The notes under the pieces: model-generated | The model's database searches: none | What the model was told of the DNA's origin: nothing | What the model saw: the letters and a program-made list of their open reading frames with translations, nothing else | Position numbers and translations under genes: made by a program | Shown: positions 776 to 5,788 of the stretch, piece after piece | How the letters are laid out: every line of letters begins with the position of its first letter | Position numbering within the stretch: the stretch's first letter is position 1 | NCBI RefSeq assembly: GCF_003334385.1 | Contig: NZ_QOWN01000073.1 | Source: Escherichia coli | Lineage (GTDB): Bacteria; Pseudomonadota; Gammaproteobacteria; Enterobacterales; Enterobacteriaceae | Direction: 5' to 3' (one strand) | DNA: 7,140 nucleotides

Positions 776-982
776 ATGAATACCCCAGTTTCACTGATGG
801 ATGACCAGATGGTCGACATGTCGTTTATCACTCAGCTGACCGGCCTGACCGATAAATGGTTTTACAAGCTCATCAAGGATGGTGCCTTTCCTGCCCCCAT
901 CAAACTGGGCCGTAGCTCCCGATGGCTGAAAAGTGAAGTGGAAGCCTGGTTGCAGGCACGTATTACACAGTCCCGTCCGTAA
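776..982 (+). CDS. alpA: AlpA-family prophage regulatory protein (small HTH DNA-binding protein, 68 aa)
   Basis: ATG at 776 preceded by GGAGGA at 762-767 (8-nt spacer); stop TAA 980-982. Translation MNTPVSLMDDQMVDMSFITQLTGLTDKWFYKLIKDGAFPAPIKLGRSSRWLKSEVEAWLQARITQSRP has the size and single helix-turn-helix layout of AlpA/Vis-type regulators. The track ORF 722..982 adds 18 N-terminal codons with no RBS, so the internal ATG is preferred. Family call is from recall, not a search. Confidence 0.7.
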   Translation: MNTPVSLMDDQMVDMSFITQLTGLTDKWFYKLIKDGAFPAPIKLGRSSRWLKSEVEAWLQARITQSRP

Positions 983-1067: not shown

Positions 1068-1640
1068 ATGCAAAAACTTGAAAACCGGTGTGAGCTGCTG
1101 CTCATCCAGCATCAGAAATGGATGACAAACGTGACGAGGCTTATCGTCGCTCATGGAATGGGGGCTCCGCATCTTCATGGTTATCACCGCCTGACCCTGG
1201 CCCACTTTTTTCTGCCAGAAAAAGGCACCATCATCTCAGTGGCACCACAGGGACTCTATCAGGTCGTCAACCCGGGAACACCACCGTTCATTCCTGCCAT
1301 TCAGGAAGGGTTAATGACCAGCATTCAGACCCATGAAATCATGCTGCTTACACATTTTAATCTGGGCGGCGTTTTACTCAGTGAGCTACATCGTCTGGGT
1401 GAAAACCGGCTGGCAAACAGGCTGAACAGCCTGCTCCGGCGTTTCAACGATCGTGATCTCTACCACACGCTGATATGGCTGTGCTGGTATGATCTGATGT
1501 GTGCTCACTCCATGCAGCCCTGGACTGAAGAGTTAAAGCATAAATCACATGCAGAGCTTGAAAACTGGGCTGTGGCGCGCAAACGGGAAAAGCGCGAGCT
1601 GGAACTGATGATTGACGAGTACCTGTTATACGCCTGTTGA
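1068..1640 (+). CDS. hypothetical protein (190 aa), function unknown; probably co-transcribed with the AlpA-like gene
   Basis: ATG at 1068 preceded by AAGGAGA at 1054-1060 (7-nt spacer); stop TGA 1638-1640. The track ORF starts at a TTG (1041) upstream of the RBS, so the ATG is preferred. Only 85 bp separates it from the alpA stop, same strand. I do not recognise the protein; it may belong to the small proteins often found beside alpA in such islands, but that is unverified. Confidence 0.6.
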   Translation: MQKLENRCELLLIQHQKWMTNVTRLIVAHGMGAPHLHGYHRLTLAHFFLPEKGTIISVAPQGLYQVVNPGTPPFIPAIQEGLMTSIQTHEIMLLTHFNLGGVLLSELHRLGENRLANRLNSLLRRFNDRDLYHTLIWLCWYDLMCAHSMQPWTEELKHKSHAELENWAVARKREKRELELMIDEYLLYAC

Positions 1641-1760: not shown

Positions 1761-3251
1761 TTATAAGCCAAAGGATTGCTCATGCCATCTTATCAGTTTC
1801 TGGCTGTAGCACGCATTCAGTTCAGGCAGCGTGATATTGTTTATTTCGGAAAGCAGGACATAGGTGGTTTTTCCTTCCTGCACGACAGAGAGCCTGAGTT
1901 GAGATGCAAGAATGTTCAGCAGGACGTTCAGCTTTTTCCTGTTCCGGAACCGGCCCGGGCCACACTGGAGAATATAATTTTTCCTGACACGGGGCGGGCA
2001 TTCTCCGCGGCACTCCTCAATGAGCCAGTCGAACAGCTCCTCGGCGTCCTTCTGCTGCAGTTCAGATTCATCAGGTAACGCAAATAATTTTTTATATTCA
2101 TCTGTGTACCACGAACTTATTACGACAGCAGACGTCATGATATCGGCAGAGATTTTCCCTTCACCCTGACTGAAATACTGCAATAACGCAGCAATTCTCG
2201 CAATGTTTTCTGTTTTTTTTGAAACATGCCCCCGAAACTGGCTTAAGGGTCCGGAAGGAGACAAATCCTGCTCCAGAACATTATAGTGATCAATAAATAT
2301 TTTTTGCGCTTCAGGAGAAAAATGCAGACAATAACGTTCATCCTTACTGGATTTTTCAATACTGCCTCTGGCCAGTTCCATTAATCGTTCATGAAATGCC
2401 GTTAATGATCCTCCCGGGGTCACAGCTCCGTTAATAAAGCGTTTCCCCTGCGTGGTGGCAGGTTTACTGATTAGACAACGGGCAAGAAAACCACTGTCCC
2501 TGGCAACAGAACCTTTTCGCTCCATATATCGGTCAAAAAGACCGGGTTGTACCATGAGGGATAATGTCATTCTAGCATTTTCAATCATCTGTTCGGGTTC
2601 ATTCTTTCTGTCCACCGACAATACGGAGCCATCCCACATTTTGTTAATAAAAGGCAGCTCAGACAGGGTATACCCATCAAATATTATACCGGCTTCATCA
2701 GACATGATACCCACTGAACGCCACTGACCACAAAGCTGATCTTTAATTGCTGCTGTCGTGGCATCATTAAAAATGAATTTATATCTTACAGGTTTTTCCC
2801 CTCTGTTTTTCTGAAGCGCTTCCAGTTGTCTGAGCGTTTCTGACTCATCCGCGCCTTTGCGGAGTTCTTTATTCAGTTTTGACAACAATGCTTTTTTCTG
2901 CGCCTTTAAAAGCTCTTCCTTATTTTTCCATATCGTCAGTTCATTTTTGTGTCTGGAATATAACAGCATCTCCTGCTGGTACAGGGGCTCCATTAATAAT
3001 TTGTCCACTGCGGTTTTTCGTTCTCCGGACTCAGCAAGCGTCAGTAAGAAAAGAGAAACCGGCCCCCGCAGTGTATTCAGTCTGCAGACATCAATCAGAT
3101 TCTGGCAGACAAGTGAAACAGCGCCCAGGGCAGATGCTGCCACAAGCCCCAGGGGAGCCTGCGTGATTTGCTGAGCTTCAATAACGGCATCACGAATGAG
3201 TGGAGGCAGCGAGCTCAGGGGAAACTCATCAGGATACTGAAAGTATGGCAT
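1761..3251 (-). CDS. P-loop NTPase-like protein, tentatively DUF3987 / YfjI-like family (~496 aa)
   Basis: Long uninterrupted minus-strand ORF in AT-rich DNA, where long chance ORFs are unlikely. Preferred start is ATG at 3251-3249 with GAGGT 5 nt upstream; the track ORF starts at GTG 3269. Stop TAA (complement of 1761-1763). Protein contains a degenerate Walker A-like LAESGERKT and a Walker B-like GIMSDEAG, plus an N-terminal PLSSLPPLIRDAVIEAQQITQAPLGLVAASALGAVSLVCQ stretch that I recall as typical of DUF3987/YfjI-like proteins. Family assignment is recall-based and unverified. Confidence 0.55.
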   Translation of the reverse strand: MPYFQYPDEFPLSSLPPLIRDAVIEAQQITQAPLGLVAASALGAVSLVCQNLIDVCRLNTLRGPVSLFLLTLAESGERKTAVDKLLMEPLYQQEMLLYSRHKNELTIWKNKEELLKAQKKALLSKLNKELRKGADESETLRQLEALQKNRGEKPVRYKFIFNDATTAAIKDQLCGQWRSVGIMSDEAGIIFDGYTLSELPFINKMWDGSVLSVDRKNEPEQMIENARMTLSLMVQPGLFDRYMERKGSVARDSGFLARCLISKPATTQGKRFINGAVTPGGSLTAFHERLMELARGSIEKSSKDERYCLHFSPEAQKIFIDHYNVLEQDLSPSGPLSQFRGHVSKKTENIARIAALLQYFSQGEGKISADIMTSAVVISSWYTDEYKKLFALPDESELQQKDAEELFDWLIEECRGECPPRVRKNYILQCGPGRFRNRKKLNVLLNILASQLRLSVVQEGKTTYVLLSEINNITLPELNACYSQKLIRWHEQSFGL

Positions 3252-3744
3252 AATGACCTCACAACACACAGAACATAAAGTACCGCAACTATTGCTACTA
3301 ATAGCAAAAATAGCAGCAGAATCAATACAGGATAAAAATTTCTGTCGATTTTCAGATTAAATAATAACCATTCGGTATTTTGTCGCTAAAGAATGTTAGA
3401 ATGAATCTGTGCGTCTACGGGCGCTCTCCGGAACACACATGTTGATTAATTTTCACACAACAACGTACCAGCAAAAAGCATCATCCAGGGTATTGCAGGT
3501 ACGGGTTTCCTGCCGGGAATAAACATAAACAGTTTCCCCGGAGTAACGCTTTCAGAAAACTGCCCTCCTGAAGAAGAATAAAATAAAGAAGATGACAGTT
3601 CCTGCACTGAATGCTGAGTACAATATTCTATGGACAGGATGACATTTTTATAAATAACAAAAACCATTTAATACTGATACATCAATAAAATACTTCCTCC
3701 CTGCTGACACAGATAAAATGCAACATTTTTTCTTCAAATACTTC

Positions 3745-3753
3745 TGTATAATC
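3745..3753 (+). promoter_or_regulatory. candidate sigma70 extended -10 element (TGTATAAT) inside the AT-rich region
   Basis: tgTATAAT at 3745-3752 on the + strand with no good -35. AT-rich DNA produces many such matches, so this is weak. Confidence 0.2.
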
Positions 3754-4084
3754 GCCAGCCAATGATGAGAATGGATTAAAATAACACTTCTTCGACAAAC
3801 ACAAAAACCAGCCTTCATTTTCACATCATCATCCAGTTTTAATTAAACCCTGACGAGCGACAGTATTTCAGTTCAGGAATTAAAAGCCAGCTATTACTCA
3901 GTAAAAACACCACCAACTAATAATATCTCAGCAGATATTTCCTGACCAGGATGACACATTTATTAAAGATTTTTAACAGGACACTTCACATTACTGAACG
4001 CTATTCCGACAGTATCACTACACAAATAAAAAAGGGAACTGGATAAATATTCATGCCGGAAGAATGGTGTAACAAAAGCATTTA

Positions 4085-4097
4085 ATCATTACGTGCG
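4085..4097. repeat. 13-bp direct repeat, copy 1 (atcattacgtgcg)
   Basis: Exact 13-mer atcattacgtgcg at 4085-4097, repeated at 4209-4221; the two copies flank the 30-bp palindrome. Confidence 0.6.
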
Positions 4098-4110
4098 TAT
4101 TCCTCTCTAT

Positions 4111-4140
4111 TCGATCACGGTTTGGCCAAACCGTGATCGA
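4111..4140. repeat. perfect 30-bp palindrome (15+15, no spacer) carrying two GATC sites
   Basis: tcgatcacggtttgg|ccaaaccgtgatcga is exactly self-complementary; GATC at 4113-4116 and 4135-4138; central TGGCCA. Read directly from the sequence. Confidence 0.9.
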
Positions 4141-4208
4141 TTCAGATGCCATTTTGCAAGTACGCATGACCCGGAAGGGAAACACTTAACAACATGGTAT
4201 CAACAGAT

Positions 4209-4221
4209 ATCATTACGTGCG
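4209..4221. repeat. 13-bp direct repeat, copy 2 (atcattacgtgcg)
   Basis: Exact second copy of the 13-mer at 4085-4097. Confidence 0.6.
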
Positions 4222-4527
4222 CACTCTTATAAAAATACACAGCAGAAGCAAGATAACTCTAAACGTAAATTTAATATCTCCCACTGACTGCCCCGACAAT
4301 ATACTGAAAAATACTCACCTCAGTAAACATAAACACACCTGATAATCAGGCTGCAAGATGAATATTTTTCTCCTTTACGGAGTAATCAGCCTGCTGTTTA
4401 ACAATAACCGCGTATTTTCATGGAAGGATATCACCCAATAACGGATAACTCCTGCCCTCCTTCATGTTAATACGCAACATCCCCATCGATTCCAAACAAT
4501 TTCAGACAGATATTATCTCCGTGAATC

Positions 4528-4567
4528 CCCCGCCACCTTTCCGGTGTGCGGGGTTTTGTCTTTTTTC
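4528..4567 (+). terminator. intrinsic (Rho-independent) terminator-like hairpin plus T-tract immediately upstream of the GTPase start codon
   Basis: Stem ccccgccacc (4528-4537) pairs with ggtgtgcgggg (4543-4553) as 10 bp with one bulged T, loop tttcc, followed by ttttgtctttttt (4554-4567). GTPase ATG is at 4583. Confidence 0.5.
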
Positions 4568-4582
4568 ACCGGGAATACATGT

Positions 4583-5455
4583 ATGAATCCGTCTGATGCC
4601 ATTGAGGCAATTGAAAAACCACTTTCTTCCCTGCCTTACTCGCTTTCCCGTCACATCCTGGAACATCTGCGCAAACTCACCAGTCACGAACCCGTGATTG
4701 GCATTATGGGTAAAAGCGGGGCCGGTAAATCCTCACTCTGTAATGCGCTGTTTCAGGGGGAGGTCACCCCGGTCAGTGATGTTCACGCCGGCACCCGGGA
4801 AGTGCGGCGCTTCCGTCTGAGTGGTCACGGTCACAGCATGGTTATCACTGACCTGCCCGGGGTGGGCGAGAGCCGGGACAGGGATGCAGAGTATGAAGCC
4901 CTGTACCGTGACATTCTGCCTGAACTGGACCTGGTGCTGTGGCTGATTAAAGCCGATGACCGGGCCCTGTCTGTGGATGAGTATTTCTGGCGACACATCC
5001 TGCAGTGCGGACATCAGCAGGTGCTGTTTGTGGTGACACAGGCCGACAAAACGGAGCCCTGCCATGAATGGGATATGGCCGGCATTCAGCCCTCTCCCGC
5101 ACAGGCACAGAACATTCGCGAAAAAACGGAGGCGGTATTCCGTCTGTTCCGGCCTGTACATCCGGTTGTGGCCGTATCGGCCCGCACCGGCTGGGAACTG
5201 GATACGCTGGTCAGTGCGCTCATGACAGCGCTTCCCGACCATGCCGCCAGTCCCCTGATGACCCGCCTGCAGGACGAGCTGCGCACGGAATCTGTCCGCG
5301 CTCAGGCCCGTGAGCAGTTTACCGGTGCGGTGGACCGGATATTTGACACAGCGGAGAGCGTCTGTGTTGCCTCTGTTGCACGCACGGTTCTGCGTGCCGT
5401 CCGTGACACAGTGGTCTCTGTTGCCCGCGCGGTATGGAACTGGATCTTCTTCTGA
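4583..5455 (+). CDS. yeeP: YeeP/YkfA/YfjP-family GTPase (50S ribosome-binding GTPase-like, 290 aa), apparently intact
   Basis: Translation MNPSDAIEAIEKPLSSLPYSLSRHILEHLRKLTSHEPVIGIMGKSGAGKSSLCNALFQGEV... contains G1/Walker A GKSGAGKSS, G3 DLPG and G4-like TQADK. I recognise the sequence as the island GTPase found directly upstream of flu. The track ORF 4544..5455 begins inside the upstream hairpin; ATG at 4583 is the more plausible start. Stop TGA 5453-5455. Confidence 0.88.
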   Translation: MNPSDAIEAIEKPLSSLPYSLSRHILEHLRKLTSHEPVIGIMGKSGAGKSSLCNALFQGEVTPVSDVHAGTREVRRFRLSGHGHSMVITDLPGVGESRDRDAEYEALYRDILPELDLVLWLIKADDRALSVDEYFWRHILQCGHQQVLFVVTQADKTEPCHEWDMAGIQPSPAQAQNIREKTEAVFRLFRPVHPVVAVSARTGWELDTLVSALMTALPDHAASPLMTRLQDELRTESVRAQAREQFTGAVDRIFDTAESVCVASVARTVLRAVRDTVVSVARAVWNWIFF

Positions 5456-5539: not shown

Positions 5540-5610
5540 AGCTTGATAATAGAATAAAACGATCGATACCTATTTTATCGATCGTTAATATCGATCGCTA
5601 TACTAATAAT
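5540..5610 (+). promoter_or_regulatory. agn43 (flu) promoter / phase-variation switch: OxyR-binding region with three Dam GATC sites
   Basis: Three CGATCG motifs with GATC at 5561-5564, 5580-5583 and 5593-5596 (spacings 19 and 13 bp), ~200 bp upstream of the flu ATG. This matches the known Dam/OxyR epigenetic switch of agn43. Exact -35/-10 and TSS cannot be fixed from sequence alone; TTGATA at 5543-5548 is a candidate -35. Confidence 0.8.
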
Positions 5611-5760
5611 AACTCCTGTTAGCAACGTGCGCAGATACACACAGACATGAGATTCAGGGAACAACAGAGCCACACGTCAGAAACTTCCGTCAGCCGGACC
5701 TCCGGCACTGTAACCCTTTACCTGCCGGTATCCACATCTGTGGATACCGGCTTTTTTATT
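5567..5760 (+). ncRNA. isrC: agn43 leader RNA / IsrC-like small RNA (prematurely terminated flu 5' leader); boundaries approximate
   Basis: The 3' end is defined by the intrinsic terminator at 5724-5760; the 5' end is assumed to be the flu TSS near the GATC cluster. From memory, an sRNA (IsrC) is annotated in the yeeP-flu intergenic region of E. coli K-12; coordinates here are inferred, not verified. Confidence 0.4.
5724..5760 (+). terminator. intrinsic terminator in the flu leader, ~30 nt upstream of the flu start codon
   Basis: Perfect 12-bp stem gccggtatccac (5724-5735) / gtggataccggc (5740-5751), loop atct, followed by ttttttatt (5752-5760). Confidence 0.75.
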
Positions 5761-5788
5761 CACCCTCACTCTGATTAAGGAAATGCTG

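Follow-up and report, generated by a model that had tools for sequence, protein, structure and literature searches.

The interval before the GTPase gene in CP4-like Escherichia coli islands: AT-rich spacer, repeat insertions and a conserved promoter-terminator leader

The window analysed here is a stretch of 7,140 nucleotides from Escherichia coli (assembly GCF_003334385.1, contig NZ_QOWN01000073.1) and is a segment of a CP4-like genomic island. Between its YfjI-family gene and its YeeP/YfjP-type GTPase gene lies an interval (3252-4582) that, on the balance of the evidence, appears to be a composite of three parts: a spacer of ~1.1 kb, two hairpin-repeat insertions and a leader of ~95 nt (Table 1). 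The bulk of the interval is ordinary, neutral-looking AT-rich filler plus the two insertions, and it is the leader, together with the factor that may act on it, that is worth following up. An earlier reading made from the sequence only had singled out the interval for its length, its palindrome, its direct repeats, a promoter-like element and a terminator, and had proposed a decayed gene, H-NS-silenced regulatory DNA or non-coding RNAs as explanations. All the features it listed were found at the coordinates it gave, and the signal it picked up stems from secondary insertions and from the leader of the neighbouring gene.

The leader precedes the GTPase gene in 4,208 of 5,426 E. coli genomes, regardless of the DNA upstream of it, and was also found in E. 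albertii, Citrobacter, Photorhabdus, Hafnia, Yersinia, Serratia, Salmonella diarizonae, Edaphovirga, Enterobacter, Lelliottia, Xenorhabdus, Pectobacterium and many metagenome contigs. Its parts follow one another in a fixed order: first an invariant block (AAATAATTTCAGAyAGATATyATC), then three bases that vary, GTGAAT, a hairpin that differs in sequence between leaders, a T-run, a Shine-Dalgarno (SD) sequence and an ATG, the last of which is equivalent to the start given by RefSeq for the GTPase family protein of CFT073. Between genera the block is 75-95% identical, as against 61-64% for the GTPase gene in most pairs (47% in locus L034), and further upstream identity is at the random level. Two copies of the leader, 2.2 kb apart (8092-8192 and 10311-10411), were seen in one metagenome contig (L125), each followed by an ATG, the GTPase match having been checked for the first; they may represent a tandem duplication of the leader-GTPase unit.

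The leader contains a predicted sigma70 promoter. Across 40 leaders of many genera T-12, A-11, T-10, A-8 and T-7 of the -10 hexamer are invariant, as is the G at -14, and -9 alone varies, giving TATTAT or TATCAT; since every hexamer position but -9 is invariant, this is the conservation pattern of a -10 element. The spacer of 15 nt between the two hexamers occurs once in each locus and is invariant across genera, most of its positions being fixed in all 40 leaders. In K-12 the paralogous block at yfjP reads TTGAAA-15-TATCAT, and the same arrangement was given by Shimada et al., who used genomic systematic evolution of ligands by exponential enrichment (SELEX) with the RpoD holoenzyme alone, for the K-12 rnlB>yfjP and perR<ykfA spacers, which are among the sites that it bound (PMC3946193); the match to the leader rests on the sequence of the K-12 yfjP spacer and, for ykfA, on the listing in that paper. 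No description of the leader was found in the literature on the start sites of yeeP, yfjP and ykfA or on c3654/c3655, where only the SELEX paper was useful (PMC3946193). Nor did a mapped start site for any copy of the leader, or transcript data for this locus, come to light.

Transcripts from this promoter would meet a hairpin almost at once, its stem starting ~4-7 nt past the predicted transcription start site (TSS). The hairpin is stable, G+C-rich and followed by a U-tract, and it shows compensatory changes. Among 73 leaders 86% of cells were paired, nine of the ten pairs changed on both sides, none of 500 shuffles did as well and slid controls reached 33-64%, figures that come from an alignment fitted by a covariance model and leaning towards structure. 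The strong terminator that had been reported at 4528-4567 is thus real as a terminator-like structure, by energy, U-tract and covariation, but it is not the end of a non-coding RNA arising in the spacer, because it sits in a promoter-plus-terminator leader that is kept upstream of the GTPase gene. Two further pairings were considered and rejected. Anti-SD pairing of an ATCTCC motif with the SD failed because three of its nucleotides vary (TCC, GTT, TCA and others), and an outer helix of GTGAA with TTCAC, which leaders of the Hafnia type lack, is no more than 49.5% paired.

The rest of the interval is of a different character. Its AT-rich and ORF-poor nature, as first described, was confirmed: the interval as a whole holds A468 T354 C303 G206 (38% G+C), all six frames carry 19-29 stops each, and the longest open reading frame (ORF) is of 73 amino acids. 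Over 3300-4400 the G+C content is 34-41%, compared with 45-60% in the flanks, a composition that fits H-NS-silenced DNA. The full-length spacer is present in ~1,810-1,870 of the 5,426 E. coli genomes, in four allele classes, and in none of them does RefSeq annotate anything inside the interval. Six-frame pseudo-proteins gave no match at E <= 1 against NCBIfam and PHROGs, a six-frame concatenated query gave none at E <= 0.01 against 5.8 billion protein clusters, and the best hit of tblastn with 17 genes from the corresponding position of other loci had E = 0.037; the suggestion of a degraded known gene is therefore unsupported. No ORF of at least 25 amino acids is intact across three compared alleles with a coding-like substitution pattern. 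A nested minus-strand ORF of 26 amino acids (~3449-3526) was tried as a candidate and stays in frame, by eye, in the window and in the L002 allele, but 9 of its 26 residues differ and its SD is lost in L002.

Evidence for a structured RNA was equally lacking. The covariance-model search that had been recommended (Infernal/Rfam) was run with Rfam 15 over the whole window at E <= 1, and its sole match, IS102/isrC, lies outside the interval. Over 3300-4040 neither strand has folding z-scores that depart much from 0, and plus-strand RNA there is almost unstructured. The strongest values (below -3) fall on the first insertion, element A, and on a minus-strand window at 4280-4399, the pairing of which is not conserved among alleles; a weaker plus-strand value of -3.0 at 4400-4519 overlaps the second insertion, element B. 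With no Rfam match, z-scores of about zero, neutral-like divergence and a terminator that belongs to the GTPase leader, the proposal of one or more non-coding RNAs ending at that terminator is not supported. Nor were DnaA boxes, the IHF consensus or the strict high-affinity H-NS motif found in the spacer. Its GATC sites lie only within element A, self-BLAST gave no significant internal repeats or iterons (best E = 0.038), and AT-richness is its sole origin-like feature.

Small sites within the spacer are few. The hexamer TATAAT, given earlier as 'TGTATAAT' and described as an extended -10-like element at 3745-3752, is perfect and intact in three of four aligned alleles, L164 having CGCATAAT instead; the TG, however, stands directly against the hexamer instead of at the TGn distance that an extended -10 has, and no usable -35 accompanies it. 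The best-conserved block of the yfjI-proximal part (Table 1) could be a regulatory site of yfjI, judged by its identity among alleles.

Four allele classes were aligned, namely the window type (at least 99% identical), L003 (~95-96%), L002 (~84-89%) and L164 (~73-76%). Spacer divergence, as the Jukes-Cantor distance K(JC) between the window and L164, is 0.29-0.33, compared with synonymous divergence (dS) of 0.255 in yfjI and 0.127 in the GTPase gene, all of these figures being rough since the locus is mosaic. Indels among the alleles are numerous and mostly not multiples of three. The 350 nt next to yfjI are 73-84% identical to L002, against 89-97% over most of yfjI itself (100-nt windows; 91% for the whole gene). 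A spacer that diverges at least as fast as the synonymous sites of its flanking genes looks neutral, or constrained in composition alone. Its distribution is narrow: the spacer was found only in E. coli islands with the order Hha / AlpA-like helix-turn-helix (HTH) protein / 190-aa protein / YfjI (minus strand) / spacer / GTPase / Ag43. None of the ~25 loci from other genera that the GTPase protein retrieved has it, and it is missing from the phage and plasmid collections save for E. coli chromosomes mislabelled as plasmids; phages share element B alone.

Both insertions are, to judge from the alleles and their copies elsewhere, later and secondary additions to the spacer. Element A resembles a miniature inverted-repeat transposable element (MITE): it is flanked on either side by a duplicated TACG (4090-4093 and 4161-4164), the orthologous site is empty in L002 and L164, and it is dispersed over 6,400 places in 2,668 E. 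coli genomes, of which a single genome can hold as many as 50 and plasmids account for 660. The perfect 30-bp palindrome at 4111-4140 is accordingly real, but it is part of this inserted element and not a feature of the region's own. Like the small palindromic repeats and MITEs of E. coli (REP/BIME, ERIC-type), element A is short, imperfectly palindromic, multi-copy and intergenic, has a 4-bp flanking duplication and seems to be a target of insertion sequence (IS) elements. It is not known to match the REP, ERIC, BoxC or RSA consensus sequences. At other places just the halves of element A match (query 9-43 and 41-74, with a 3-nt overlap) and adjoin ISL3 or IS3 transposase genes, which suggests that IS elements insert into its centre.

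Element B is missing from L164 (the ETEC4079 allele) and occurs at 3,955 places in 2,444 E. coli genomes. It is 80-82% identical to an annotated stem_loop 3' of the autotransporter gene eaaC in phages P-EibC (AF151674; L163:1501-1559) and P-EibA. The direct repeats reported earlier are present but carry little weight. That of 13 bp (4085-4097/4209-4221) is near chance, one copy crossing the junction of element A, and only 9 nt were shared before element A was inserted; that of ~30 bp (3623-3654/3935-3966) is 75% identical and borderline with respect to chance, with a self-BLAST E of 0.038. Repeated k-mers do exceed shuffles in the interval, an excess to which the 30-bp palindrome contributes by a share that was not separated.

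Taken together with its position, the anatomy of the leader suggests that these ~95 nt probably gate the main operon of the island. As the control region of the backbone operon (the GTPase gene, Ag43 and onward), the leader would let its own transcripts, and read-through from the DNA upstream, mostly stop before the GTPase gene unless termination were overcome. The invariance of the promoter spacer, which goes far past the requirements of RNA polymerase itself, may point to an operator or a loading site for a conserved factor, and the nearby AlpA-family HTH protein would be the obvious candidate. In the fullest form of this proposal, which is speculative and rather doubtful as a whole, a genus-spanning switch would operate in which the HTH protein, with or without its 190-aa partner, loads at the promoter, RNA polymerase (RNAP) reads through and the backbone operon (GTPase, Ag43, YeeR/S/T, CbtA/CbeA) is turned on; the switch would mark the border of the cargo or defence genes, and the spacer would serve as a nucleation platform for H-NS and Hha.

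The closest known arrangements are lambda PR'-tR' with Q and PalpB-tB with AlpA in Pseudomonas aeruginosa. In these a promoter is bound by RNAP holoenzyme alone, as the leader's would be to judge from the K-12 spacers; shared with the leader are a strongly conserved element between -35 and -10 (the Q-binding element, QBE, or AlpA-binding element, ABE, site) and an intrinsic terminator a short way downstream, before a long operon of a mobile element (PMC7969949, PMC9371919). They differ in the position of the terminator, which here would lie ~5 nt past the predicted TSS as compared with 54 nt (tB) or more. An argument from homology of the AlpA proteins was dropped, as P. aeruginosa AlpA is Q-like, with eight helices, and is unrelated to the 68-aa HTH protein of PF05930. 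A Q-like fold for the 190-aa neighbour was likewise considered and dropped after a negative fold search. With the HTH protein unrelated to that AlpA, and with no pause element behind the start, the leader was not filed as a Q/AlpA-type cassette.

For the spacer a role by composition would fit, namely as a binding platform for silencing by H-NS and Hha, and it must also hold the yfjI promoter. The ~62% A+T stretch, the module's own hha paralogue and the published derepression of the flu/yeeR island make such silencing plausible: in enteroaggregative E. coli (EAEC) 042 every gene in the duplicated region of the flu/yeeR island was derepressed more than 2-fold by hns and hha-null mutations (PMC6480617). 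With H-NS/Hha-silenced xenogeneic DNA the locus shares ~62% A+T over more than 1 kb and a place in an island gained by horizontal transfer, with an Hha paralogue of its own; it differs in that the spacer has no strict high-affinity H-NS motif, and the likeness is by composition only.

A number of observations weigh against a gated leader beside a silencing or filler spacer. The -35 is weak (TTCCAA, 3/6, with TTGAAA, 5/6, in the K-12 paralogues) and stands at 15 bp, not 16-18, and a promoter scan accepting 16-18 nt missed it. The SELEX promoter is the authors' prediction inside a bound spacer and not a mapped start (PMC3946193). K-12 Term-seq tables hold no 3' end at yfjP or ykfA, two loci that are probably silent in K-12. 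No -10-like sigma-dependent pause element was found past the predicted start in the alignment, GTGAAT having no A at hexamer position 2 in any register, and no protein like Q or P. aeruginosa AlpA was found nearby, the 190-aa neighbour being without a fold match. Finally, all four allele classes retain 1.12-1.34 kb despite neutral-like drift, for which pure junk is no explanation; the retained length suggests a role tied to composition or length.

Of the other explanations for the spacer, it is unlikely, if not greatly so, that it represents one or more decayed cargo genes, orphan or too eroded to be recognised, in DNA that is now functionless. In other islands this position is occupied by genes, the length of the spacer is roughly that of one gene, and neutral-like divergence, frameshifting indels and repeat-element insertions would fit decay; GC skew, moreover, stays negative beyond yfjI and across the spacer, which former genes on the minus strand would account for. 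Yet no frame retains similarity to anything in NCBIfam, PHROGs, the protein clusters or the genes found at this position elsewhere, and the four allele classes, at K up to ~0.3, are equally ORF-free and of similar lengths. Since all alleles are ORF-free the decay would predate their split, and still the DNA was not deleted. That the spacer encodes non-coding RNA is improbable, whether from the TATAAT at 3747-3752 to the terminator at 4528-4566 or as a long minus-strand 5' untranslated region of yfjI. The hexamer is intact in most alleles, a strong terminator lies ~800 nt downstream on the same strand, and minus-strand RNA would be G-rich and C-poor, hence a poor substrate for Rho. Against this stand the absence of any Rfam family, folding over 3300-4040 no better than that of shuffles, and the lack of compensatory change or sequence constraint; RNA from the plus strand would go untranslated and hold much more C than G, a composition typical of Rho targets, and the terminator is already explained by the conserved leader.

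CP4-type islands are related to P4, and an AT-rich non-coding stretch adjoining a DUF3987 (helicase-like) gene, which resembles a replication module, could in principle be a replication origin such as those of P4-like satellites or phage-inducible chromosomal islands (PICIs). This is very improbable here: DnaA boxes, the IHF consensus and iterons are missing, GATC is limited to element A, the alleles lack the sequence conservation usual for origins, and the stretch is absent from other genera with the same backbone. More has to be allowed, though it too is on the unlikely side, for a simpler role of the leader hairpin, in which hairpin and U-tract insulate the operon from read-through out of the upstream genes, or form a stabilising 5' stem-loop, and the promoter's own transcripts are not regulated by them. 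A terminator would be useful at the many loci where a cargo gene on the same strand stops 83-109 nt short of the GTPase ATG, and the hairpin is placed at the extreme 5' end of the predicted transcript. In every genus, however, the promoter comes first and the stem of the terminator follows 11-25 nt downstream, so that the promoter's own transcripts must cross hairpin and U-tract, while an insulator alone would do equally well upstream of the promoter. The constant order of promoter before hairpin argues for promoter-terminator coupling, as the gating proposal would have it, short of proving it.

The DNA upstream of the leader is a slot that holds unrelated genes in different islands, among them AbpAB, YfjM and RnlAB in K-12 CP4-57 (L037) and a type III restriction-modification methyltransferase in E. 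albertii (L006:2060-4279). As unrelated genes stand upstream of a constant leader, the leader can be taken as a fixed border, on the right-hand side, of a cargo slot with variable contents; in the lineage of the window an inverted yfjI fills this slot together with the non-coding spacer. The defence or cargo hotspots of P4-like and CP4-like integrative elements likewise have a variable slot between stretches of conserved backbone. The difference is that the slot here holds yfjI plus non-coding DNA and that most of the other occupants tested had no PADLOC match, the only ones among the slot genes of other loci being the type III methyltransferase of E. albertii and a marginal NsnC.

The HTH gene and the gene for the 190-aa protein accompany the leader as a pair, on the opposite strand, in Hafnia, Serratia, Enterobacter, Lelliottia, Photorhabdus and Pectobacterium (L010, L012, L015, L016, L018, L020, L021, L024, L025). 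Across genera the HTH proteins are 66-81% identical, as against 26-38% for their 190-aa partners, and such unusually high conservation is in keeping with recognition of an invariant DNA site by the HTH protein.

Should the leader act in the proposed way, it would be the control point of a gene set that most E. coli carry, many of them more than once in the genome, and that includes the Ag43 adhesin and toxin-antitoxin genes of the CbtA/CbeA type; a 95-nt cassette would then offer a testable handle on the silencing and switching on of cryptic islands. As right-hand border of the slot the leader should be useful for the mining of accessory and defence genes. The spacer serves mainly as a caution: a region that is long, lacks ORFs and shows a palindrome and a terminator may consist of neutral filler into which repeats have been inserted.

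Table 1. Features of the window and of the interval 3252-4582, in order of position
Feature	Position	Strand	Description
AlpA-family HTH gene	776-979		PF05930; 68 aa, excisionase-type
190-aa gene	1068-1637		no family assignment
YfjI-family/DUF3987 gene	1761-3251	-	
Interval under study	3252-4582		1,331 bp, between the YfjI-family gene and the GTPase gene
AT-rich ORF-free spacer	3252-4487		~1.1 kb without the two insertions; one E. coli island lineage only
Best-conserved block of the yfjI-proximal part	3455-3532 (~78 nt)		contains TTTCCTGCCGGGAA; ~90% identity vs 73-84% across 3201-3600
TATAAT hexamer	3747-3752	+	perfect; not called by the consensus promoter scan
Element A	4094-4160		67-nt imperfect-palindrome repeat, MITE-like; core is the perfect 30-bp palindrome 4111-4140
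Element B	~4407-4478		~70 nt, hairpin-forming; second insertion
Leader	4488-4582		
Predicted sigma70 promoter of the GTPase operon	4490-4516	+	-35 TTCCAA 4490-4495; -10 TATTAT 4511-4516
Promoter spacer	4496-4510		ACAATTTCAGACAGA; 15 nt, invariant, G at -14
Predicted TSS	~4522-4525		within conserved GTGAAT
Intrinsic-terminator-like hairpin	4528-4537/4543-4553	+	loop TTTCC; 10-bp stem, one bulge, centroid ~-19.5 kcal/mol
U-tract	4554-4566	+	TTTTGTCTTTTTT; read as UUUUGUCUUUUUU in the terminator test
SD-like GGGAA	4571-4575	+	in short spacer 4567-4582, followed by GTPase ATG 4583-4585
YeeP/YfjP-type GTPase gene	4583-5455	+	
isrC/IS102 RNA and GATC-rich agn43 switch	5559-5764		Rfam
Ag43 start	5790 onward		

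The genes around the interval are those of a recurrent island type. An identical gene order, with an hha paralogue in front, is found in CFT073 and in three other allelic copies. Strains with the window's allele of the interval include CFT073 (NC_004431, 3,489,277-3,490,607), Nissle 1917 and ATCC 25922. The gene upstream of the interval, described in the sequence-only reading simply as a P-loop gene, could be identified more closely as encoding a YfjI-family/DUF3987 protein, for which a sequence search against PDB was negative. The 190-aa gene is exceptional in its divergence: over 1001-1900 of the window its comparison with L002 gives ~37% amino-acid identity and 39-69% nucleotide identity (100-nt windows) in islands that are otherwise 90-97% identical, a pattern that indicates allelic replacement or diversifying evolution of the sequence. 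An AlphaFold2 (AF2) model of its product has a predicted local distance difference test score (pLDDT) of 83 and is mainly helical with one beta-hairpin, and neither a fold search nor a sequence search against PDB gave a match.

Protein segments of the GTPase that are 96-100% identical to the E. coli island were also encountered in bins of metagenome-assembled genomes (MAGs) assigned to Lachnospiraceae or Collinsella (L007, L031, L033, L035, L036), and in L007 the flanking DNA is 92% identical to the island; these are probably the result of binning contamination. Downstream of the GTPase gene, the Rfam match to IS102/isrC is full-length (256 bits) and overlaps the three GATC sites of the agn43 phase-variation switch, upstream of Ag43.

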